Shown here: piece by piece, positions 6,169 through 49,551 of the stretch
How the letters are laid out: each line of letters opens with the position of its first letter
How positions within the stretch are numbered: position 1 is the first letter of the stretch
Assembly: GCA_963704305.1 (NCBI GenBank)
Contig: OY969888.1
Location: forward strand, 859,168 to 923,167
Length of the DNA: 64,000 bases
Direction: 5' to 3'
Origin: an uncultured Bacteroidota bacterium
GTDB lineage: Bacteria; Bacteroidota; Ignavibacteria; Kryptoniales; JAKASW01
Made by a program: the position numbers and the translations under genes
The notes under the pieces: generated by a model
What the model saw: the letters and a program-made list of their open reading frames with translations, nothing else
Databases searched by the model: none
Told to the model about the DNA's origin: nothing

Positions 6169-7957
6169 TAAGGAATCGCTGGAACGTCAAGCCAGTCAGC
6201 TTCTGGACTGGAAGTCCCAGGAATAAGTTGGAGACCATGTTTTGTGGACTATATACTATCCATTCAAATGGATAGTTGGACTGTATCCCCATTGGAAAAT
6301 TCTTTTCAGAAAAGGACGAACCGTACACAAACAGCTCAGAGGAGGCTCTTGAGTCGCACGCTACTGTTAGTCCTGTATTAGGGCATATGAGATTCAGATC
6401 ATTCCCCGCTGCGACATCAACAGAATCAAAATCATTCCATTTAAGAGATCCAACGCAAAAGGCATTTCCGTACGGCCAAATTCCAGACTCCAAAAGGTAG
6501 ATGTTGCCAGCCAAGTCGGTCCCAACCGGCTCGGCCCGGCCATCCCGCGCGGCTGGGAAGGAAGCAATTTCCTGAACCTGATATGAACCGTCCTGAGCCT
6601 CCTTGATTGCAAACAGCCTTGCCAACGTGTCAATCTCCATTTGGTTGCGCTCATCCACAGTATTCGCTATTATCATGTTGCCACTGTCACTATGCAGGAT
6701 GACGTTGAAATAAAAAGGCTTATCGGCGAACGTTCCCAGTACTTCTTTGTAGTCTTCAGCACCCGTGGTCATGGGGGTCATTGTGGGGTAGCTGCTTCTC
6801 CGTCCTATTCTGAATATCTTCTGCGGAGAGTAGGGTGCATCCATAAACCAATAGATGTAGTGCTCAGTAAACGCAAAGCTAACTGTCCGGGTTTCCTGTG
6901 AGCCTGTCCCAACCAGGTTCAGGCGAACTACTCCATCTGAATCGGGCTCGAGGCGGTGCGTATGATAATAGATTCGAGATTGAGCGTCCCCATCTCCCGT
7001 CGCTATCCAAATATCGCCCGTATATGGATCACGCTGGACCGCATGAACATGCCGCACGCCTCCATTGTACCCGGTGCTATCCCTTGGCGGAAAGGCGTAT
7101 ACTGCGTGCCAGTGCTCACCATTTTCGGTCCCCTTGTAGATCTTAATACTTATGTGAGGTGCAGCCTGATCGTCAGTATTGTATTCTCCTAAATAGACAT
7201 TTCCAGAGTCATCCGAATCCCAGCCCTGAGCCAAAACGCTAGATACAGTAAAGGTCCCGTCATGTTGCGGGAAAGAATCGCAGACTACATGAGCAGCTTT
7301 GAACCCAAAGTCAGTTTTCAAGATCCTTCTGTGCCCCTGCAGGGAATCTCGAGTGCCAAGAATGAAATATCCGAAATCAGTGTGCAGAAAAGGCTCGTTG
7401 TCGATGTCGCCATGAATCTCTGGAGGGTATTCCCCCACGTCCATTGGCTGAAGCGGGTTAGTTCTTGAAGTGTACCAATATTTCGAGTCAAACAAAAACA
7501 CGGTGTCCCCGATTACCGATGCATTAATCCAATTAGTCGATTTATATGACGGAGGGTAAGTCAGGTTTTCCATAGTCAATGTAGAAACTCCTGCTACCCA
7601 TGGGACAACAGTGACATGGCAAGTATCAATCAGAATGGGAATGCCTCCCTGGGCAATGAGAAGAGTTTTTCCAAATTTCTTTCCCGTCACGAAACGGGAA
7701 CGGACAGTGGCTACTGTAGTGTCGGTCGAATAGCAAGAAAATTTGCCACTAGGATCGACATATTCCAACAAGTGCGGAACATCCTTCGTGAATGAAATAC
7801 ATCTCGTCCGAAATATCGGCTGGGAAAACGTTCCACCAAGGGGGAAAACTTCAAACACAAGTGACATGACGAGCACAAAGGACGTCGATGATCTGTTGGA
7901 GATCTTGCTCATGATTGATCTATGGCAAGCGCGTCTTCGGCTTATGGTTACTCGCAA
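6140..7957 (-). CDS. Exported hypothetical protein (Ig-like Big_2-type segment plus beta-rich, propeller-like body)
   Basis: 605-aa ORF with an N-terminal hydrophobic signal ('TSFVLVMSLVFEVFPLGG') and a 'TVATVRSRFVTGKKFGKTLLIAQG..HVTVVP' Ig-like segment. There is no CTD at its own C-terminus. Confidence 0.65.
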   Translation of the reverse strand: MRVTISRRRACHRSIMSKISNRSSTSFVLVMSLVFEVFPLGGTFSQPIFRTRCISFTKDVPHLLEYVDPSGKFSCYSTDTTVATVRSRFVTGKKFGKTLLIAQGGIPILIDTCHVTVVPWVAGVSTLTMENLTYPPSYKSTNWINASVIGDTVFLFDSKYWYTSRTNPLQPMDVGEYPPEIHGDIDNEPFLHTDFGYFILGTRDSLQGHRRILKTDFGFKAAHVVCDSFPQHDGTFTVSSVLAQGWDSDDSGNVYLGEYNTDDQAAPHISIKIYKGTENGEHWHAVYAFPPRDSTGYNGGVRHVHAVQRDPYTGDIWIATGDGDAQSRIYYHTHRLEPDSDGVVRLNLVGTGSQETRTVSFAFTEHYIYWFMDAPYSPQKIFRIGRRSSYPTMTPMTTGAEDYKEVLGTFADKPFYFNVILHSDSGNMIIANTVDERNQMEIDTLARLFAIKEAQDGSYQVQEIASFPAARDGRAEPVGTDLAGNIYLLESGIWPYGNAFCVGSLKWNDFDSVDVAAGNDLNLICPNTGLTVACDSRASSELFVYGSSFSEKNFPMGIQSNYPFEWIVYSPQNMVSNLFLGLPVQKLTGLTFQRFLSVVVQGLHR

Positions 7958-25744: not shown

Positions 25745-25826
25745 GTGTTCTAAATTTCTGATCCCAAATTGCCAATTGATAATCTGATGTTTGGATGTTC
25801 GATCGCTGAATGTGTATCAGTCACGG

Positions 25827-32080: not shown

Positions 32081-33075
32081 TTTTCAGTCGGCACGTATGA
32101 CATGGTCTTATTCTTCACCTGCTTTGCAACCCAGGAATAAGTAATAGTTAACCCATCAGTCAATTTCATAGATGGCGACCAACCCAGCTTATCCCTAATT
32201 AACCTGTTGTCTGAATTCCTGCCTCTAACACCTAGAGGTCCGGCGACATGATTTATTAATAACTTTTTCCCCGCGATGTTTATCACGATTTCAGCAAGTT
32301 GATCAATAGTTACCATTTCCTCCGAGCCGATGTTGACGGGCCCGATGAAATCCGATTCCATAAGCCGCCTGATCGCTTCCAGGCATTCGTTAACATACAA
32401 GAAAGAGCGTGTTTGTTTTCCGTCGCCCCATATTTCTATTTCTCCGCCGTCCTGCGCCTCTGCGACCTTTCTGCAAACTGCAGCAGGCGCTTTCTCTCGC
32501 CCGCCGACCCATGTCCCTTCCGGTCCAAATATATTATGAAACCTTGCTATCCGGACATTAAGTCCGTAGTTCCTGTGAAACGCCAAGTAAACATGCTCGC
32601 TGAACAATTTTTCCCAACCATATTCACTGTCTGGAGCAGCGGGGTACGCTGAATCTTCAGAGCACTTTGGGTTGTCGGGATCTTCCTGGTTATAGGCAGG
32701 GTACATGCAAGCAGAAGATGAGTAGAAGATCTTCTTCACCTTCACTCTGTTTGCTGCTTCAGCCATGTTTAAATTGATCATCGCAGAATTATGTATAATG
32801 TCGGCGTCGTTCTCCCCTGTGAAGACGAATCCTGCGCCGCCCATATCGGCTGCAAGCTGGTACACCTCATCAAAAGGCTGGTCAGTGATATTACGACAAA
32901 CAACTGGGTCCCTCAGATCTCCGATCACAAAATCATCTGCAACCGTGTTTGAAAACTCTGGATACTTGAGGTCGAGCCCTCTGACCCAGAAGCCTTGACC
33001 TTTTAATTTTTTTACTAAGTGGCTTCCAATGAAACCGCCGGCGCCGCATACTAGTGCCGTTTCCTTTATTGACAT
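32077..33075 (-). CDS. SDR-family NAD-dependent epimerase (GDP-mannose 3,5-epimerase-like)
   Basis: 'ALVCGAGGFIGSHLVKKLKGQGFWVRGLD', 'YGWEKLFSE' (YxxxK) and 'DFVIGDLRD'. Confidence 0.8.
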   Translation of the reverse strand: MSIKETALVCGAGGFIGSHLVKKLKGQGFWVRGLDLKYPEFSNTVADDFVIGDLRDPVVCRNITDQPFDEVYQLAADMGGAGFVFTGENDADIIHNSAMINLNMAEAANRVKVKKIFYSSSACMYPAYNQEDPDNPKCSEDSAYPAAPDSEYGWEKLFSEHVYLAFHRNYGLNVRIARFHNIFGPEGTWVGGREKAPAAVCRKVAEAQDGGEIEIWGDGKQTRSFLYVNECLEAIRRLMESDFIGPVNIGSEEMVTIDQLAEIVINIAGKKLLINHVAGPLGVRGRNSDNRLIRDKLGWSPSMKLTDGLTITYSWVAKQVKNKTMSYVPTEK

Positions 33076-33100
33076 AAGTTACTCCTGAGTGTTTGTATTA

Positions 33101-33220
33101 AGTTAGTGATCGGTGAGGATAGCTCTTAGCTGATAGCTCATGGCTGATAGAAACAGTGAACAGTAATCAGTGATCTGTGATCGGTGAACAGTGAAGGGTG
33201 ATCTGTGATCTGTGACTGGA
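33101..33220. repeat. Heptanucleotide-periodic repeat tract (AGCTSAT units then CNGTGAW units)
   Basis: 33121-33148 reads AGCTCTT AGCTGAT AGCTCAT GGCTGAT. 33154-33216 reads CAGTGAA CAGTAAT CAGTGAT CTGTGAT CGGTGAA CAGTGAA GGGTGAT CTGTGAT CTGTGAC. Confidence 0.85.
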
Positions 33221-33222
33221 GT

Positions 33223-33708
33223 TCACTTTCTTTTGTTTTGCACCTTCGTCAGAAATTCCAGGTCATCAATGTCTTTGTGCCTTCCGAGAGCTTTCTTGTT
33301 CTTAACCAATTCATCAAGCCCGATGTAATAGATCGGCACCTCCATGCCCTGAAATGAAAACCTCTCATCCACCCTGTTTTCCCAAGCCTCCTTGAATCTG
33401 ACACCTTCAATTTCATTTATCAAATCTATCCTGTTGGGAGGCACGCCAAATTGAAAAATCATGCCGTCCTGCATCAGTTCGTCCTTGTTAGCCATACCTG
33501 GTATATCGTTCAGCCAAAACTGACTCAGAGCAGCATATAGCCGACTAACGTTTTCCTCAGACCCTTCATAAAAAATGTCAATATCTCCGGTCAATCTTGC
33601 GTGCCCGTAGTAGATGACAGCCTCACCTCCGACGATCACGTACCGCACTTCGCGGCTTGACAAAACCGAAAGGAACTCGGACACATCTTCGGAAAAAGGA
33701 ACTTTCAC
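33223..33708 (-). CDS. Small nucleotidyltransferase-fold protein (DUF6036-like; putative toxin/antitoxin-type module component)
   Basis: 'VRYVIVGGEAVIYYGHARLTGDIDIFY' is the G-x-..-D-x-D minimal NTase signature. 161 aa. Confidence 0.65.
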   Translation of the reverse strand: MKVPFSEDVSEFLSVLSSREVRYVIVGGEAVIYYGHARLTGDIDIFYEGSEENVSRLYAALSQFWLNDIPGMANKDELMQDGMIFQFGVPPNRIDLINEIEGVRFKEAWENRVDERFSFQGMEVPIYYIGLDELVKNKKALGRHKDIDDLEFLTKVQNKRK

Positions 33709-33896
33709 TTGTCCAACCGGAGTCGCTTACCGAATGCCCTGCTCTCGCGAACATCGGGATTATCGATCCCGAAGAAACGTTCCTTTAGGGCCTTGGCAAT
33801 TTCATGACGCTGGTCGCAGGTCATCTCTATCTGCTGCAGAAGATCCCAATCCTCCGCTTCCTTGTGCGTCCTGGCTTTGTTGACTATGCGGTCCAT
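33705..33896 (-). CDS. Small partner protein of the NTase-fold gene (63 aa)
   Basis: 4-nt overlap with the downstream NTase start (33705-33708). The charged helical sequence 'KEAEDWDLLQQIEMTCDQRHEIAKALKERFFG' is typical of small TA-type partners. Confidence 0.5.
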   Translation of the reverse strand: MDRIVNKARTHKEAEDWDLLQQIEMTCDQRHEIAKALKERFFGIDNPDVRESRAFGKRLRLDK

Positions 33897-33904
33897 CGTT
33901 GGGT

Positions 33905-34212
33905 TAGCTCGTAGCGGATAAAAGCAGTGAAAAGTGATTGATAATCAATGAACAATGATCAGTGATCAGTGAATGGTGATCGGTCCCGCCTTGCGGCATC
34001 CCGTAAATCCATTTTGAATAATGATGAACGGGATAAATAATTTTGACGGGATAATCAGTGAGCAGTATGAATAGCTTATAGCAACTTAGCTCATAGCTGA
34101 TAGGATGCAGGCTTGAAAGCCGGCAAGCGTGGATATCTGATGGCTCATGGCTCATAGCAAGGAGCAGTGTGCAATAATCAATGGACAGTTTGCGGTGAAT
34201 GGTGATATGAGC
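33905..34212. repeat. Heptanucleotide-periodic repeat tracts (GTGAW-type and AGCTSAT/GGCTCAT-type) around a short unique core
   Basis: For example CAGTGAA AAGTGAT TGATAAT CAATGAA CAATGAT CAGTGAT CAGTGAA TGGTGAT (33925-33980), AGCTCAT AGCTGAT (34089-34102) and TGGCTCA TGGCTCA (34141-34154). ORF 33904..34155 here is a repeat artefact. Confidence 0.8.
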
Positions 34213-34263
34213 AATTTTAGCGTGTCACCTAATTTGGCTGGAGCCACACATCCGCCTGCTTTC

Positions 34264-34632
34264 TTAAGGACGCCTTACTCCTGCTAGCATCATCCTCATC
34301 GGTTCGAGGGTTCTGCGAAACGGATCGAGCTTCAATCCAAGAATCTCAAGGGTAACCATACCGAGGAGCGATTCATCGCCTTCTTCACCGAGAATTACAG
34401 GAGTGTGCCCCTCTCCGCCAGCAATTCTAATAAAACACTCCGACACATTACGTTTGATCATAGAACCGTCCGCCAAGGTAAAATCCATCGTTCGCTCCGC
34501 AACCAGCCCCATGTTCTTCCAATGTTCCTGTGCAAGGAGTGAGTAGACAGCACCGCTGTCAACCAGAAACCGGACGGATCGTTCCACACCGTTGGGTCCT
34601 CTCACCATTCCATCGATAAAAGTCAATCCCAT
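34264..34632 (-). CDS. Retropepsin-like (clan AA) aspartic protease, stand-alone 122-aa form
   Basis: The 'FLVDSGAVYSLL' active-site D-S-G-A motif and the size match single-domain bacterial/archaeal retropepsin-like proteases. Confidence 0.75.
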   Translation of the reverse strand: MGLTFIDGMVRGPNGVERSVRFLVDSGAVYSLLAQEHWKNMGLVAERTMDFTLADGSMIKRNVSECFIRIAGGEGHTPVILGEEGDESLLGMVTLEILGLKLDPFRRTLEPMRMMLAGVRRP

Positions 34633-34775
34633 GACGCGTCCTCTCCTTCGTAAATCCTGACAGGGTCAAGCGCCTGCAATACCAAATGGACACGAGCTTC
34701 GCATTTGCGCCTCTGCTCCTGCCGGTAGATTTCGCTTCCTAACAATATACGTCGCACTCGTCTCAATTGGTAGAA

Positions 34776-34930
34776 CTGTAATCAGTGATTAGTAAAAGTG
34801 ATCTGTGAACAGTGAACGGTGATCGGCAAGCGGTGAGTAGTAAACAGTAAGCACTAGGCAGCAACCGGTAGACATTATGTTTTATCAAGTGTATTCCCTG
34901 CTGACAGCTCATTGCTAAAAGCTAATCGCC
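34776..34930. repeat. Heptanucleotide-periodic repeat tract
   Basis: CTGTAAT CAGTGAT TAGTAAA AGTGATC TGTGAAC AGTGAAC GGTGATC.., then AGCTCAT TGCTAAA AGCTAAT (34906-34926). Confidence 0.75.
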
Positions 34931-35105
34931 ATTCTTCCTACAGCTTCGCCATCTCACTCCCATTGCGCTTCGAAAAAGTGCTTTGCGCACATAGGAACTG
35001 TGCATCATAGAGCGAATACGCCTCTGGCTCGCGTAGTTAGAGAAATTTTTCTCCGCGAGCTTCACTATCCCGACAATTCGGGAGAGTGTGTCCCCCTCTC
35101 TATGA

Positions 35106-35723
35106 TTATGTTGCGGATGAAGTAAGGTTAACGGCAGTCATGCCTGAACGCGGTTTGCGCGCTGCCGTGCTGCGGCTAATTAGCCTTACTGCACCTGCTG
35201 GTACCTTTATACTAAGTAGTTTGTCCAGCCCATCGACACTGACAACGAAATTCTTGCCATTAACTAACTCGACAACCTTGCCACGCAATCCCATCAAGGG
35301 ACCGGCGACCACTTCTGCTTCGTAACCGGAATAATCACCCTCCAGCACATCGATATCATCAGAATGATACTCAATCAATCTCTTAACATCTTCAATTTGG
35401 TTATCAGGTACAATACTTGGCTTACCATTTGAGCTGACAAATTTTACAAAGCCATCTATTGTGTAAATACTCTGGAACTCGCTCTGCAAAGTTCTCGCAA
35501 AAACATAACATGAAAACAGCGGAGTCTCGATCCACTTTTTCCGATCGCTCCACTGTCTTATTTCTTTTCTCAGGGGAAGATAGGATTCGATACCGCGCTC
35601 GGTCAAATCCAGACAGACGCATTTCTCATGACGGGCTTTGACATAGATTACCCGCCAAACTTTCTTCTCAAAATCTTTAGGACCTTCAGCCCCCCCAGGC
35701 AAGGCGCATTGCAAGTCGTTCAA
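35106..35723 (-). CDS. UpxY-family (NusG-like) transcription antiterminator
   Basis: 'WRVIYVKARHEKCVCLDLTERGIESYLPLRKEIRQWSDRKKWIETPLFSCYVFAR' is an NGN domain. A C-terminal KOW-like 'GLRGKVVELVNGKNFVVSV' follows. It has a TTG start and the exact start is uncertain. Confidence 0.8.
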   Translation of the reverse strand: MNDLQCALPGGAEGPKDFEKKVWRVIYVKARHEKCVCLDLTERGIESYLPLRKEIRQWSDRKKWIETPLFSCYVFARTLQSEFQSIYTIDGFVKFVSSNGKPSIVPDNQIEDVKRLIEYHSDDIDVLEGDYSGYEAEVVAGPLMGLRGKVVELVNGKNFVVSVDGLDKLLSIKVPAGAVRLISRSTAARKPRSGMTAVNLTSSAT

Positions 35724-36154
35724 ACGATATCTCCACTTTAGGTCTACGGTAAAAAAGCGTCGTCACCATCTGCGTTCAACATACAAACAGATTTCTTACG
35801 ACAAAAGGTTCCGCGGACCGTTCCACATTTCATGAGACGATAAGACCTTATCATGGATCATGTTAGATCCCTTCTCGTCTCAAACAACAACGAAAGAATT
35901 GGTTCGGAGGAAATGGCTAGGTGCCAGTGCTCGAAATTAAGAAACTACTCCCGCTCATTAAACCGGGAATTTCCTCCTTCTGTTCGCCCTCTCGGAATAA
36001 AGTTAAGTCTGCCTAAGGAAGAAATCAAGCGTCTGAATTTAAAGTTATGTTAAGAATTTAGGATGTGACAATGTTCACACGCAGAATGCGGCGAAAAATG
36101 ATGGATTTGTATTGGGGCGATGGGGGAAAAGGGATCAGGGAGCAGTTAGGAGGA

Positions 36155-36812
36155 GATTTACAATTGACGATTGCCGATTGATGATTGAACGGTGAAGAGT
36201 GATTTGTGGGAAGGAGAGTTGGGAGGAGAGCTGGGAAGAGATTTGGGAAGAGATTTACGATTGTCAATTGCCGATTGACGAATGAACGGTGAGCAGTTGG
36301 AAGGAGAGTTGGGAGGAGAATTGGGAGGAGATTTACGATTGACAATTGCCAATTGACGAATGAACGGTGAGCAGTTGGAAGGAAAGTTGGGAGGAGAATT
36401 GGGAAGAGATTTACGATTGTCAATTGCCGATTGACGAATGAACGGTGAGCAGTTGGAAGGAAAGTTGTGAGGAGAATTGGGAAGAGATTTACGATTGACA
36501 ATTGAAGATTGACGAATGAACGGTGAGCAGTTGGAAGGAGAGTTGGGAGGAGAATTGGGAGGAGATTTACGATTGACAATTGCCGATTGACGAATGAACG
36601 GTGAGGGGTAGGAAGGAGAGTTGGGAGGAGAGTTGAGGAGAGATTTGCGATTTACAATTGCCAATTGATGATTGAACGTCGAGAGAGCAGTGAACGGTTG
36701 GGAAGAGATTTACGATTGAGGATTGCCAATTGACGAATAAACGGTGAGAGAGCAGTGAACGGTTGGGAAGAGATTTACGATTGACAATTGCCAATTGATG
36801 ATTGAACGATGC
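36155..36812. repeat. Tandem repeat array: 1x97, 5x78, 2x65 bp units plus a 41-bp partial unit
   Basis: The unit start GATTTAC recurs at 36155, 36252, 36330, 36408, 36486, 36564, 36642, 36707 and 36772. The unit is GATTTACGATTGACAATTGCCGATTGACGAATGAACGGTGAGCAGTTGGAAGGAGAGTTGGGAGGAGAATTGGGAGGA, itself built of heptamers. Confidence 0.9.
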
Positions 36813-36877
36813 CCTATGAAAAAGAAAATCCATTTACACGAATTTTCTTACAGACTCGTAAATATTGGAACGGACTC

Positions 36878-37228
36878 TCATCTCCTCTCAGCGGTTTTGT
36901 GTGAGGCCGTAAAAATGGCCAGGAGTTCTTTAGCTTCCGAGATAATTGGCTTTACGACTTGGTCGTTTGCGATTTCAGATTCTAAGATCAACTCGAGCCA
37001 ATAAATAGTCTCACTTGCCTCCTTCTGGACTATCCCGATCTTATGAACGAAGTCCGCCCTCGACTCTCCTCGGGATGCTTCACAATAGTTCGCCCCCACC
37101 GATGTCCCAGACTTCAAGACCTGGTACCCAAGGACATCGGAGACTTTACTCTTTGGAAGTGAGTTGACAAGCTTTATGACGTCAAGCGCGAACGCTTTCG
37201 TCCGCTTCTCCAAATCCTCTCTCTTCAT
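36878..37228 (-). CDS. Four-helix-bundle protein (TIGR02436 / '23S rRNA intervening sequence protein' family)
   Basis: 'LGYQVLKSGTSVGANYCEASRGESRADFVHKIGIVQKEASETIYWLELI' matches the family core (GxQLxRSxxSIGANxxEA .. KE..ET.YWL). Confidence 0.85.
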   Translation of the reverse strand: MKREDLEKRTKAFALDVIKLVNSLPKSKVSDVLGYQVLKSGTSVGANYCEASRGESRADFVHKIGIVQKEASETIYWLELILESEIANDQVVKPIISEAKELLAIFTASHKTAERR

Positions 37229-37235
37229 TAGTCAG

Positions 37236-37266
37236 ATCATCAATTGTCAATCGGCATTTACAAATC
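37236..37266. repeat. Inverted partial copy of the 36155-36812 repeat unit
   Basis: The reverse complement GATTTGTAAATGCCGATTGACAATTGATGAT shares GATTGACAATTG and ATTGATGAT with the terminal unit at 36772-36812. Confidence 0.5.
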
Positions 37267-37268
37267 CT

Positions 37269-38711
37269 TCATCGCCTCCCTATTCCATAATACTCAAAGC
37301 CGAGCTCTCTCACCTTTTCCGGATTGTAGATGTTGCGTCCGTCAAAGATCACATGCCCCCGCATTAACCTTTTCATCCTATCGTAATCCGGCTCTCTGAA
37401 TTCCTGCCACTCAGTTACCAGTATCAGCGCATCCGCATCTTTGAGTGCATCATACTGGTCTTTAACAAATCTCAACTTCCCTTCTGTGACTTTTCCCTTC
37501 ACGCCTTTTCCTTTCAGGTTTACCTTCCGCCCTGTCAGGCTCTCCTTCTTCTCCTCAAATAATCTTCTTGCGTTATCCATTGCCACGGGGTCAAATGCGG
37601 AAACCTCCGCACCATCCCTCAAAAGGCTGTCGATGACCACGAGCGAAGGCGCCTCACGAATATCGTCAGTCTTCGGCTTGAAGGAGAGGCCCCACAACGC
37701 AAATTTCCGCCCGGCGAGTTTGCCCGCGAAGTGTGCTCGAATCTTCTCGGGAAGGACGCCCTTTTGCCTTTCGTTAACCCTGTTCACCGCGCTGACAAGC
37801 GAAGTCTCCATCGAAACTTCCTCTCCCATCTTGATGAGTGCCTTAACGTCTTTCGGGAAACAACTTCCTCCCCAGCCGATTCCCGGGAAAAGGAATTTCT
37901 GTCCAATCCTGTTGTCGTAGCCCATCGCCATCCTTACCTTCTCGACATCCACGCCTAATTTTTCACAGAGAAGTGCAATCTCATTCATGAACGAAATTCT
38001 CGTCGCGAGGAAAGCGTTAGCCGCATACTTCACCATCTCGGCGTCCCGAGTTTGCATGAGAAGAATCCTGGGGACGGTTCTGACAAACGGCTGGTACAAC
38101 TCTTGAAGGATGTCCGCAGCTTCGTGATCTTCAATGCCGATAACGACCCTGTCGGGAAACAAGAATTCTTGAATAGCACTCCCCTCTTTCAGAAACTCCG
38201 GGTTTGATGCCACCTGGACTCTCGCTCGCGGATACTTCTTGAATATCTCCCTCAACTTGTCCCCGGTCCCCACAGGAACCGTACTCTTTGTCACGACTAA
38301 CTTATACACCTCCGCTTCGTTGCCACCCATCGCTTCACCGGGCCTCCGTGATTTCCGTTCCCCGCTTGAAGATCGGACATTTAATATCTGTCCTATCCTT
38401 TCCGCAGTTTCCATGACGTATCTCAAGTCCGCACTGCCGTCTGCACCCGGAGGCGTCGGCAGGCAGAGAAAGATCACCTTCGAACTTTCTACGGCATCCT
38501 GCAGAGAGGTAGTGAAGAATAACCGTTTTGCTCTTTGATTCTTCTCAATCAGTGCATCGAGCCCGGGCTCGTATATAGGAGATTTGCCTTTCTTAAGGAG
38601 CGAGATCTTTCTTGAATCGACATCCATGCAGACAACCTGATTGCCGGTTTCTGCGAAACATGTTCCGGTAACAAGACCTACATAGCCGGTTCCGATGACT
38701 GAGATGTTCAT
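37269..38711 (-). CDS. ugd: UDP-glucose 6-dehydrogenase
   Basis: 'MNISVIGTGYVGLVTGTCFAETGNQVVCMDVD', 'GWGGSCFPKDV' and 'PEFLKEGSAI'. It is about 40 aa longer than usual because of two low-complexity insertions. Confidence 0.9.
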   Translation of the reverse strand: MNISVIGTGYVGLVTGTCFAETGNQVVCMDVDSRKISLLKKGKSPIYEPGLDALIEKNQRAKRLFFTTSLQDAVESSKVIFLCLPTPPGADGSADLRYVMETAERIGQILNVRSSSGERKSRRPGEAMGGNEAEVYKLVVTKSTVPVGTGDKLREIFKKYPRARVQVASNPEFLKEGSAIQEFLFPDRVVIGIEDHEAADILQELYQPFVRTVPRILLMQTRDAEMVKYAANAFLATRISFMNEIALLCEKLGVDVEKVRMAMGYDNRIGQKFLFPGIGWGGSCFPKDVKALIKMGEEVSMETSLVSAVNRVNERQKGVLPEKIRAHFAGKLAGRKFALWGLSFKPKTDDIREAPSLVVIDSLLRDGAEVSAFDPVAMDNARRLFEEKKESLTGRKVNLKGKGVKGKVTEGKLRFVKDQYDALKDADALILVTEWQEFREPDYDRMKRLMRGHVIFDGRNIYNPEKVRELGFEYYGIGRR

Positions 38712-38743
38712 TTGATTAATTTCCTATTTAAGTTGTGAGAGGA

Positions 38744-38852
38744 GCGGTGATCAGTGATTGGTGAACAGTGAACGGTGGTCGGCGAACTGCTCACAGTTCA
38801 AAGTTTACTGTTTACTCGTAACTATTCACAAATCACAGTTCACGCTTCACGA
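38744..38852. repeat. Heptanucleotide-periodic tract with dyad symmetry
   Basis: The left arm GGTGATC AGTGATT GGTGAAC AGTGAAC GGTGGTC switches at 38785 to the complementary orientation CTCACAG TTCAAAG TTTACTG TTTACTC .. TCACAGT TCACGCT TCAC. Confidence 0.75.
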
Positions 38853-38977
38853 CATACAACTAACTATTTCCTGCGGACTTTCCTTGAAGACTCAGGCAAT
38901 AAGATAACAATTCAACCTCGTGCGCACAAGACGGAGCATGGATCCGCTGCTACCGGGTGCCTCTTGCAAGAGCCCAT

Positions 38978-39010
38978 AACAACAAAAAGCCCCTCAGAAT
39001 CTCGAGGGGC
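38978..39010 (-). terminator. Rho-independent terminator after the 483-aa T9SS gene
   Basis: The minus strand reads GCCCCTC GAGATTCT GAGGGGC followed by TTTTTGTTGTT, about 30 nt after the stop at 39042. Confidence 0.7.
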
Positions 39011-39041
39011 CTTTGTGAACAATTATGTTCTTTGGAGTCTG

Positions 39042-40493
39042 TTACTTCAAAAGAAGCATCTTCTTCATCATTGTAAAGGTCCCGGCATCCATCCTGTAGA
39101 AGTACACGCCGCTCGTGACTTGTTGGCCCTGGTCATTCAGGCCATCCCATGTTACGGAGTAGCGTCCCGCTCCCATGTCACTATTGACAAGTGTGCGGAC
39201 TTCTTTTCCGAGAATGTCATAGACCGTGACCCTGACATTCGACATGTTCGGCAAATCGAACTTGATGCTGGTGGTCGGGTTGAACGGATTCGGGTAGTTC
39301 TGACCGAGCGAGTAATCCTTCGGGAGGCCAGGCAACTCCTGCACCTTCTGAACCTTGAAGACCCAGGTATTCGAAGCAGACAGGCCACCTTGATCGCTGA
39401 CGACGACCTTCACGGAATCTGTCTTTCCGGAATCCGAGAATGAGGTCGTGAACCAGTTGTCGGCGCCAGTCTTCTTCGTAGTGCCGTTGACACTCCAGGT
39501 GTATGTCAGCACGTCGCCGAGGTCCGGATCGCTCGCGGTCGCCGCGAAGGTCACCGAAGCGTTCAATTGAATCTTGCTCACCGAGGGCGTGAAGCTGGAG
39601 ATCTTGGGCGGGTGGTTGACTTTTGTACTTGTCAACGATCCGTTCGTCACCCCAACACTCGGAGTGCCTTCGTTGTACTCGAAGCCGGACAAAGTCAGTG
39701 ATGTCTTTCCTGCACCGACTACTACTCCTGTTACGTATACTAAGACGCCTTTTCCTGAGAGAGTTGCTGCTCCAGCGGCGGCTATTGATACCGTACCAGG
39801 ATTAGACATGCCGGCAGTGATTGTCATCGAAGAGGGCGAAATCGTTCCAGTTGTGGAATATCCCAGACCGGTGATTTGGACGACGCTCGTATCGTACGCC
39901 AAATTGAACTGATACGAATAGACATTCTGTCCAGTCAAAGTGCTGTCAGCGTTTATGGGTATCAAGACTACTTGACCAACCGTGTCAGTGAGTGCAGGTA
40001 CAGACACGCTCACTGCGGCAGTTCCGACAGATCCATTCGTAAGGTTGGCAGTCGGTGTACCCTCGTTGAACATGAAGGATTGAAACGTCAAAGCAGTTGT
40101 ACCAGTACTCAATATCGTCGCATCCAAGTTAATCAGCGTTCCAACGCCGCCAAGGTATCCTGAACCCGCTGCAGCTACGCTGATTTTGCCACCGACAGTG
40201 TCCACGACTGGCTGAACCGAAATGGCCGACGATAGAGTCCCTGATATATCTGCCCCCGTTATCTTTATCATGTGAGGGTTGTAGGTTACAACGAACTGAT
40301 ACGATCGAACGCCCTGGCCATCCAGGTTGCTGACTGTAATCGGCATGGCAACGGCTGCACCTACTGTTCCTGTCACGTTTGGCAGGCTTACGCTCACCTG
40401 CGCAATACTCAAACTGCTCTGTAGTATGAGCATAGCGAAGGCGAGACCGAATATCCTTGTCACATCTCTACTAAATTTTAACATTTGACTCAC
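39042..40493 (-). CDS. T9SS-sorted surface protein with two cohesin-like modules and a PKD-like domain
   Basis: It has a signal peptide. Two modules follow: 'VSLPNVTGTVGAAVAMPITVSNLDGQGVRSYQFVVTYNPHMIKI..TFQSFMFNEGTP' and 'VSVPALTDTVGQVVLIPINADS..YSYQFNLAYDTSVVQI..LSGFEYNEGTP'. Then comes 'SDPDLGDVLTYTWSVNG' (PKD-like) and the CTD 'NYPNPFNPTTSIKF..GVYFYRMDAGTFTMMKKMLLLK'. Confidence 0.8.
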   Translation of the reverse strand: MSQMLKFSRDVTRIFGLAFAMLILQSSLSIAQVSVSLPNVTGTVGAAVAMPITVSNLDGQGVRSYQFVVTYNPHMIKITGADISGTLSSAISVQPVVDTVGGKISVAAAGSGYLGGVGTLINLDATILSTGTTALTFQSFMFNEGTPTANLTNGSVGTAAVSVSVPALTDTVGQVVLIPINADSTLTGQNVYSYQFNLAYDTSVVQITGLGYSTTGTISPSSMTITAGMSNPGTVSIAAAGAATLSGKGVLVYVTGVVVGAGKTSLTLSGFEYNEGTPSVGVTNGSLTSTKVNHPPKISSFTPSVSKIQLNASVTFAATASDPDLGDVLTYTWSVNGTTKKTGADNWFTTSFSDSGKTDSVKVVVSDQGGLSASNTWVFKVQKVQELPGLPKDYSLGQNYPNPFNPTTSIKFDLPNMSNVRVTVYDILGKEVRTLVNSDMGAGRYSVTWDGLNDQGQQVTSGVYFYRMDAGTFTMMKKMLLLK

Positions 40494-48996: not shown

Positions 48997-49389
48997 TGAC
49001 TTGTCTCTCTGTTTTGTTCCCGGAAAAAGTTACTTTATCGAATGACATCTGTCAAGTGAACGAGAACACACGAATAAGTCCGGAATCTTGCCCACGCGCT
49101 GCGGTCGTGAGCCAAACTCTCATCTTGCGGATGAGGGTCCTCTATTCTTCGACAGCATAACATCATCGCTCGAGTGAAAGTTCAAGCGCAACCACGTCGG
49201 CGTCATGCAGCTATCAATTCTTATTATCGGATCAATTCGCCCTATTTCAACTCTATCGCCTCCCTCGATAGGGCTCGGCAGCAAAAATTCGCCGCCTGTG
49301 ACTTTCGCGCGCCTGGTCGCGAACTACGCAACCAAGCTCTGCTTGTCGTGAGGCTGGTCCCGCATCGCGGGACGACCCTCTGCTTGTCG

Positions 49390-49461
49390 TGAGGCTGGCA
49401 GGGATCGAACCTGCGACCCTCTGCTTAAAAGGCAGATGCTCTACCACTGAGCTACAGCCCC
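49390..49461 (-). tRNA. tRNA-Lys (anticodon UUU)
   Basis: A hand-folded cloverleaf: GGGGCTG TA GCTC AGTGGTA GAGC A TCTGC CTTTTAA GCAGA GGGTC GCAGG TTCGATC CCTGC CAGCCTC A. There is one G-U in the acceptor stem and CCA is not encoded. Confidence 0.9.
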
Positions 49462-49480: not shown

Positions 49481-49551
49481 CGACAGGGCCGTGATCTCAA
49501 CTGCGGCCCCCCCGCTAAAAGCGGGGTGCTCTACCACTGAGCTACAGCCCC
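49481..49551 (-). pseudogene. Decayed tandem copy of tRNA-Lys(UUU) (tRNA-like, acceptor and T-arm do not fold)
   Basis: The 5' 24 nt are identical to the functional copy (49528-49551 = 49438-49461). The anticodon arm CCCCG CTTTTAG CGGGG is intact with compensatory changes. However, the T-loop is TGAGATC and the 3' acceptor CCTGTCG cannot pair with GGGGCTG. Confidence 0.45.

Follow-up and report, generated by a model that had tools for sequence, protein, structure and literature searches.

The origin and purpose of the intervening sequences of 23S rRNA, and of the conserved open reading frame (ORF) associated with them, have been open since the early 1990s. In Coxiella burnetii the intervening sequence sits in helix 45 and carries the S23p ORF in its loop, between terminal inverted repeats that form a 28-bp stem with one mismatch and one bulge; three tandem GACAGAT heptamers lie just 5' of the ATG, the Shine-Dalgarno (SD) sequence is poor, and RNase III cuts have been mapped in the stem, at the first repeat (PMC4990558). 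The Coxiella protein is apparently not made, its ORF is decaying and the element is regarded as selfish or mobile; S23p-bearing intervening sequences also occur in Leptospira, Brucella and Xanthomonas, as cited in the same work (PMC4990558). Members of this protein family, whose motif is GxxRxxxSxxxNxxE, also sit inside cas operons (PMC3936711). Intergenic heptamer direct repeats, the short tandemly repeated repetitive (STRR) sequences and the TAACTGA repeats, have been described from cyanobacteria, Beggiatoaceae and Bacteroidetes, with unknown function and suspected horizontal spread (PMC4679880). Neither of the latter two papers links family genes with heptamer repeats. Here we describe a gene of this family in a stretch of 64,000 nucleotides, hereafter the window, from an uncultured Bacteroidota bacterium (contig OY969888.1, positions 859,168 to 923,167), where it follows ugd in a polysaccharide locus and is bracketed by inverted arms of short repeats. 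The locus is probably an intervening-sequence-type four-helix-bundle cassette that occupies an mRNA spacer and whose arms would pair as RNA and be cut by RNase III. The cassette and its host gene consist of the following features.

37269-38711, minus strand: host gene ugd, for UDP-glucose 6-dehydrogenase, with its stop codon directly at the 5' arm (Pfam, homologues).
37236-37285, minus strand: 5' arm, degenerate 7-nt repeats that fill the spacer between ugd and the ORF, with complementarity running into the last ugd codons (inverted pairs I1-I7, folds, shuffles).
36878-37228, minus strand: four-helix-bundle gene of 116 aa, PF05635/TIGR02436 ('23S rRNA intervening-sequence protein', S23p) (hidden Markov models, structure, selection).
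36765-36811, minus strand: proximal 3' arm, the reverse complement of the 5' arm and also the first unit of the array (pair I7, 31 nt, 77%; partner of the 5' arm in the 521-nt fold).
36130-36812, minus strand: array of nine tandem units, six to seven of 78 nt followed by others of 65 nt, each consisting of a copy of the 3' arm and a CCUCC-rich pyrimidine tract (repeat analysis).

The spacer between ugd and the ORF reads GGATTTGTAAATGCCGATTGACAATTGATGATCTGACTA on the coding strand, a row of degenerate heptamers (GATTTGT AAATGCC GATTGAC AATTGAT GATCTGA). A preliminary description of this DNA, made from the sequence alone, had put the ORF 41 nt past the ugd stop; the spacer counts 40 nt (37229-37268), with ugd including its stop codon ending at 37269 and the ATG at 37228-37226. 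The same description had reported an inverted partial copy of a downstream repeat at 37236-37266, which is indeed the reverse complement as quoted there. The downstream string itself, GATTTACG...GAACG, is present too but occupies 36772-36808, the end coordinate of the reported interval 36772-36812 being 4 nt too long. Each of the nine array units contains a heptamer block that the 5' arm matches, imperfectly, as its reverse complement. With the nearest unit (36772-36802 against 37236-37266) the arm is 77% complementary over 31 nt, with the most distal one (36155-36185) 81% over 31 nt, and with the unit at 36552-36597 (against 37240-37285) 76% over 46 nt, the match in this case extending into the last ugd codons.

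Pairing was scored by locally aligning the 100 nt in front of the ORF to the reverse complement of the 120 nt behind it, and dinucleotide shuffles served for comparison. The complementarity that had been suspected between the flanks goes beyond chance: they score 29 against 15.6 +/- 2.3 for the shuffles, only 2 of 5000 of which reach 29, and their score exceeds that of all 70 flank partners borrowed from other loci. Moreover, the 12-mer GATTGACAATTG, allowing at most one mismatch, occurs in the 64 kb only in the array and at one inverted site, the chance expectation being 0.5 matches. A period of 7 is the best fit for the 5' arm, with weak autocorrelation (0.42), and the 3' side shows period 7 at 0.51.

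Folding of the minus-strand RNA from 36760 to 37280, as proposed in the preliminary description, encloses the ORF by a long-range stem, in the minimum free energy structure and in the centroid structure alike (z = -2.5), and in this 521-nt fold the ATG of the ORF is paired as well. In a 1191-nt fold that takes in the whole slot, the partner of the 5' arm is instead the most distal unit (36155-36185). The arm pairs with an array unit in every fold made, and with this switch of partner the array therefore offers nine alternatives. Two other readings of the array were discarded: it lacks the unique spacers of a CRISPR, the 78-nt units being repeated whole at 91%, and it is not coding, as the 65-nt units break the frame.

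The assignment of ORF 36878-37228 as a clear family member stands, with matches to PF05635 (E 4.3e-18, 65.9 bits, cut-off 33.8), TIGR02436 (83.8 bits, cut-off 24) and PDB 2RLD (E 1e-18). An AlphaFold2 monomer model of the protein has four helices and a pLDDT of 95.9; in Foldseek its template-modelling (TM) scores are 0.87 to 2RLD, 0.85 to 2GSC and 0.77 to 4DWL, the accessory protein Avd of the Bordetella phage diversity-generating retroelement (DGR). At the family motif the protein reads Q36-x2-K39-x3-S43-x3-N47-x2-E50, which retains S, N and E but has Q for G and K for R; in an alignment of 28 sequences, Q36, N47 and E50 do not vary. Judging from the pattern of substitutions the protein is maintained by purifying selection, because synonymous sites are saturated against the orthologue at locus L002 (pS 0.95) while pN is 0.13. 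No SD-like 4-mer was found ahead of the ATG, as the preliminary description had noted, and this is typical of the family, in which an SD-like motif is present at only 43 of 143 loci. An exact-sequence look-up of the protein returned no record, and PADLOC and PHROGs gave no match to it. Among the scanned ORFs around the gene, whose neighbours are polysaccharide, type 9 secretion system (T9SS) and toxin-antitoxin-like genes, there is no reverse transcriptase, and a template/variable repeat pair was not found near it.

But does the bracket belong to this locus or to the family? The survey drew on 80 loci from species-representative genomes (GTDB) and 80 from Joint Genome Institute (JGI) metagenomes, of which 71 and 72 were usable, giving 143 loci from many phyla in two independent sets. 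By eye, nearly every family gene is preceded by short tandem repeats and then followed by their reverse complement, as in the arm pairs AAAGTGCCTAAAGTG / CACTTTAGGCACTTT and GAATGCAGAATGCAGA / TCTGCATTCTGCATTC or with the repeat GAAGGATGAAGGATGAAG. The median score in the genome set is 32 for the inverted and 15 for the direct orientation, and the median of the per-locus shuffle means is 15.8; the corresponding values in the metagenome set are 30, 15 and 16. The inverted orientation outscores the direct one by 56 loci to 15 among the genomes and by 56 to 12 among the metagenomes. The preliminary description had suggested looking for comparable inverted repeats around other family members, and the majority do carry them, 47 of 71 genome loci and 45 of 72 metagenome loci beating all 200 of their shuffles. 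A score of at least 26 is reached by some 64-68% of the four-helix-bundle genes (64% in the metagenome set). Control ORFs taken from the same loci reach it in 0.7% of cases when 150 aa or longer (n = 300) and in 5.6% when 90-150 aa long (n = 108).

The geometry of the bracket can be given in medians: the arms are 28 nt long and stand 18 nt from the start codon and 19 nt from the stop codon of the enclosed gene, the first arm sets in 4 nt past the stop of the upstream gene, and the second ends 20 nt before the next ATG. Intergenic gaps are about 54 nt on each side, and 107 of 126 family genes are co-directional with their upstream neighbour. The repeat period is most commonly 7, then 9, and three to six units per arm are typical. 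Sequestration of the start codon was considered as a general role and rejected, given the median distance of the arms from the start, even though the ATG is paired in the window. The bracket is also present in the few viral contigs that carry family genes, the subfamily being rare there (11 loci in 2.9 million contigs), and in cultured strains, including those with a second, divergent subfamily. Among cultured carriers, Nostoc punctiforme PCC 73102 has the gene (NPUN_RS34315) on pNPUN01 with GTCGGAG units, and Anabaena sp. 90 has one on pANA02, flanked by cas6 and cas4; the others are Calothrix NIES-22 and Riemerella anatipestifer, and Riemerella plasmids are included. A screen of 170 loci for copies inside rRNA found none; one of them, L160, lies near a 16S gene and a tRNA, outside any 23S gene. 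The bracket of PF05635 genes is family-specific and replicated: it encloses most members across phyla but not genes of other kinds, and the locus in the window is an ordinary, somewhat degenerate case of an apparent general rule. In another polysaccharide cluster (L003, 3172-3290) a heptamer run that follows a four-helix-bundle gene enters the first codons of an ABC-2 permease gene (GATTCCC x4).

Gene and arms look like one portable unit, because about two-thirds of the 143 relatives carry the same bracket. Similarity of the arms rises with identity of the proteins (Spearman 0.37; reached by 0 of 300 Mantel permutations): of pairs with 60-80% protein identity 52% have arms in common, and above 80% identity 94% do. 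This also holds across phyla, where 111 of 172 pairs with at least 60% protein identity share arms, for example members from Desulfobacterota and Planctomycetota that are 75-80% identical and both have GTGCCTAAA units. These comparisons indicate that arm and protein sequences are inherited and horizontally transferred together. At the locus itself, alignment with the syntenic locus L165, whose ugd is 80% identical, defines two further features.

36109-37274, no strand assigned: variable cassette slot, without homology to L165 (blastn).
35106-36108, minus strand: conserved leader (35724-36108) and UpxY-family antiterminator gene (35106-35723), the right-hand boundary of the slot (NF033644, 124.5 bits, cut-off 100; homology to L165 resumes at 36108).

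In blastn, L165 5340-6801 corresponds to window positions 38715-37275 and L165 7682-8854 to 36108-34938, with no match in between, although synteny is kept on both sides of the slot. The slot of L165 (6802-7681) holds a cassette whose PF05635 gene comes from a different subfamily and whose arms are of the GTGAACAGT type, whereas that of the window has GATTGAC-type arms and the nine-unit array; the L165 ORF is split, at about 7000-7235, by an insert of some 230 nt that resembles a miniature inverted-repeat transposable element (MITE) or a repetitive extragenic palindromic (REP) element and bears inverted CCCTACGGG motifs. L165 carries a second cassette, with AGCTCAT-type arms, after its UpxY gene. 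The more distant L002 has a cassette of the window's type after ugd, its protein being 75% identical, while L169, from a Kryptoniota genome, has no such gene after ugd. The slot between ugd and the UpxY gene holds different cassettes in close relatives. No target-site duplication is seen at the boundaries against L165, though in both genomes the slot is filled. The preliminary description had suggested a mobile element of the intervening-sequence kind, and the covariation of arms and protein across phyla, the turnover of the slot in L165 and the anatomy of the Coxiella element all support this.

Further material of the same kind lies around the slot and elsewhere in the window. At about 34895-34935 on the minus strand, exactly at the site of the second cassette of L165, there are AGCT-type heptamers (ATTAGCT TTTAGCA ATGAGCT GTCAGCA) without an ORF, likely a remnant or an empty slot. 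In the 5' region of ugd (38745-38850, minus strand), GTGAACTGT / TCACTGTTCAC heptamers form a hairpin, also without an ORF (dG -36.1, z = -2.5); L165 lacks about 245 nt at this hairpin, and such hairpins therefore come and go independently. Two blocks of GTGAACAGT-type heptamers, at 34805-34850 and 38805-38850, are 72% complementary over 46 nt at a distance of 3954 nt; they bracket the whole block of ugd, cassette, array and UpxY gene, and a role as an outer, nested stem is possible. Runs of TCACTGA/TCACCGT-type heptamers in direct orientation, with AGCTATG-type heptamers interleaved, occur at 33140-33215, 33925-33990 and 34800-34870 and flank an aspartic protease gene and a gene pair for a 63-aa product and a DUF6036 nucleotidyltransferase. 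At a distance of 11 kb from the cassette, the 82-nt spacer between Wzm and Wzt contains a solitary 20-nt piece, ATTGCCAATTGATAATCTGA (25767-25787, plus strand), that agrees with the 5' arm in 18 of its 20 nucleotides.

How might such a cassette be tolerated by its host gene? The cassette runs from the 5' heptamer arm at the ugd stop through the SD-less ORF to the reverse-complement 3' arm, which together with a pyrimidine tract is amplified into nine tandem units. In the mechanism that we propose, the arms would pair, in transcripts reading through from ugd, in an imperfect duplex of about 30-45 bp and loop the ORF out, thereby joining the two host flanks as an intervening sequence does in 23S rRNA. 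RNase III could then cut the arm duplex, again as in rRNA, and the cut would detach the ORF message from ugd and so may limit polar effects on host genes.

Several observations weigh against this mechanism. The arms are only 76-81% complementary, with a longest perfect run of 11 bp, and the proximal 3' arm begins about 66-75 nt past the stop codon, as compared to a family median of 19. The whole-flank RNAduplex energy is no better than that of shuffles (z = +1.1), although it is a poor statistic, being large for any pair of 100 x 120 nt, and local alignment was used in its place. The core of the unit, CAATTG, is palindromic, which is why part of the upstream piece also aligns in direct orientation (78% over 18 nt, family D3). 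The orthologous cassette of L002 has weak arms (inverted 19, p = 0.05; direct 20). One further feature lies between the stop codon and the 3' arm.

36816-36850, minus strand: A/U-rich hairpin followed by UUUUU, possibly a weak terminator (521-nt fold; alternative fold z = -1.7).

This hairpin and its U tract, which the terminator scan did not report, might end the transcript ahead of the 3' arm. Finally, among the mismatches between the arms those compatible with G:U pairing on the sense strand are not in excess (34 vs 33), and therefore nothing in them favours an RNA stem over a palindrome at the level of DNA.

The absence of a G:U strand asymmetry is likewise what would be seen if the arms acted as DNA, that is, as terminal inverted repeats or hairpins (cruciforms or single-stranded DNA) by means of which the host's recombination or replication enzymes would move, copy or delete the cassette, with RNA pairing being incidental. 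We regard this as unlikely, though it is compatible with pairing of the arms in the transcript. It would account for the turnover of cassettes at fixed slots, for an ORF plus arms common to different phyla, for the insertion or deletion of ORF-less hairpins of the same repeats between relatives, for the solo arm pieces elsewhere in the window, and for the many carrier contigs that terminate in repeats. However, neither a transposase nor an integrase nor a reverse transcriptase was found beside the cassettes, no target-site duplication was seen, and subfamilies differ greatly in arm sequence, which would not be expected of ends that a dedicated transposase recognises. Moreover, the co-orientation of the genes with their hosts and the arms abutting stop and start codons point to constraints at the level of the transcript.

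Pairing of the arms as RNA can also be set against the idea that the short repeats are binding sites for the cassette's own pentameric protein, one unit per subunit, for autoregulation or for a nucleoprotein particle comparable to that of Avd with DGR RNA and reverse transcriptase. In its favour, the protein has the fold of the homopentamers 2RLD and 2GSC and of Avd in the DGR ribonucleoprotein, the arms usually have 3-6 units, and the arm type covaries with the protein subfamily. Yet we consider this reading improbable, since there is no direct evidence of nucleic-acid binding by members outside DGRs, periods of 7 and 9 both occur, the Coxiella protein is apparently not made (PMC4990558), and the inverted symmetry of the arms is left unexplained. 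Least of all do we believe that the array is a promoter or leader of the UpxY operon or a locally expanding satellite, with the upstream piece a stray and the bracket a by-product without a role. It is true that the UpxY gene lies downstream of the array, that the array's unit is in part a palindrome and that heptamer runs, both direct and inverted, abound in the spacers of this genome. However, homology to L165 places the start of the conserved UpxY leader at 36108, outside the array, the bracket is family-specific and replicated, and only 2 of 5000 shuffles reach the observed score.

All genes of the window are on the minus strand and belong to one large polysaccharide locus. In the order of transcription, a Wzc-like gene is followed by two T9SS surface-protein genes, ugd, the 116-aa ORF, the tandem array, the leader of about 385 nt and the UpxY-family gene, and then by an aspartic protease gene, the pair of a small gene and a DUF6036 nucleotidyltransferase gene, and genes for an epimerase, glycosyltransferases and Wzm/Wzt. 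The cassette had previously been placed inside a polysaccharide operon transcript; in fact it is the 3'-terminal part of the ugd unit and precedes the conserved leader of the UpxY-led operon. The homologues of ugd indicate an organism close to Candidatus Kryptoniota. The window contains no rRNA, and the cassette gene lies between ugd and the UpxY-family gene, hence away from the helix 25 and helix 45 locations of 23S rRNA. Rfam gave no family match in 33000-39200 at E values up to 1, and in the whole window it matched two tRNAs only. These are a tRNA-Lys (UUU) at 49389-49461 and a second, weak match at 49484-49551, both on the minus strand; a 41-nt tandem repeat (49337-49426) extends into the tRNA-Lys at its 3' end. 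The ugd product has 480 aa as compared to 433-447 aa in most relatives and contains two lineage-specific insertions, one rich in Ser/Arg/Gly after about residue 112 and one rich in Lys/Gly near residue 400. The polysaccharide loci of this lineage (window 33223-34632, minus strand; L169; L170) are interspersed with small toxin-antitoxin- or defence-like genes, namely those for DUF6036/DUF2204 nucleotidyltransferases, AbiEii, HepT and a clan AA aspartic protease.

Beyond this locus we advance a broader proposal, and only tentatively: PF05635 genes together with their inverted short-repeat arms may constitute a widespread, unrecognised class of horizontally mobile stem-loop cassettes, of which the 23S copies would be an rRNA-resident minority. 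Most would reside in operon spacers, from the stop codon of the upstream gene to just before the next start, where the stem would loop the insert out of the host transcript, and the pentameric Avd-like protein may read the repeat units and help to copy or move the cassette. Should the ORF-in-stem unit prove general outside rRNA, its copies in rRNA would represent a single niche of a more general cassette. This would assign a role to at least some of the puzzling heptamer repeats found between genes in cyanobacteria, Bacteroidota and other groups, and would explain why family genes interrupt polysaccharide, CRISPR-cas and other operons and why assemblies frequently break beside them; through the relationship with Avd there is, in addition, a possible link to retroelement biology. 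The cultured carriers Nostoc punctiforme, Anabaena sp. 90 and Riemerella make cutting of the stem, binding of the repeats and movement of the cassette testable. As far as the literature searched shows, the inverted-repeat bracket of PF05635 genes outside rRNA appears to be undescribed; we found no description of inverted short-repeat flanks around family members outside rRNA, in a coverage of the literature that is incomplete, so that one may exist.

Compared with known systems, the cassette in the window is like the Coxiella intervening sequence in its protein family, in the ORF enclosed by an inverted-repeat stem, in the heptamers 5' of the start codon and in an SD sequence that is poor or absent. 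It differs in that it lies between protein-coding genes, in that its arms are only 76-81% complementary and in the ninefold multiplication of the 3' arm. Furthermore, the protein of the window is kept by purifying selection where the Coxiella ORF is decaying, and RNase III cleavage is here proposed by analogy. With Avd, the accessory protein of DGRs (PDB 4DWL, 8UB7), the protein shares the four-helix-bundle fold and the superfamily (TM 0.77). Avd forms pentamers and binds RNA and reverse transcriptase; the protein of the window is about 14% identical to it and comes without a nearby reverse transcriptase or a template/variable repeat pair. Like the STRR and TAACTGA repeats, the repeats of the window are tandem 7-nt units in intergenic DNA and, as those often do, adjoin a start codon; unlike them, which are direct repeats without a link to a gene, they form inverted pairs, around members of one gene family.

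Stems that are processed by RNase III between cistrons are familiar from the early mRNA of phage T7 and from rRNA precursors. As in these, a long imperfect duplex in a polycistronic transcript could separate messages, but whereas the stems of T7 and of rRNA precursors are local hairpins, the duplex in the window would be long-range and enclose a whole ORF of 350 nt. Small structured mobile DNA, finally, comprises MITEs, REP elements and bacterial interspersed mosaic elements (BIMEs), and integron attC cassettes. The cassette resembles these in being compact, bounded by inverted repeats, located in spacers and variably present between strains; it differs from them in that no cognate transposase or integrase, conserved ends or target-site duplication were seen and in that its arms are short tandem repeats which vary by subfamily.

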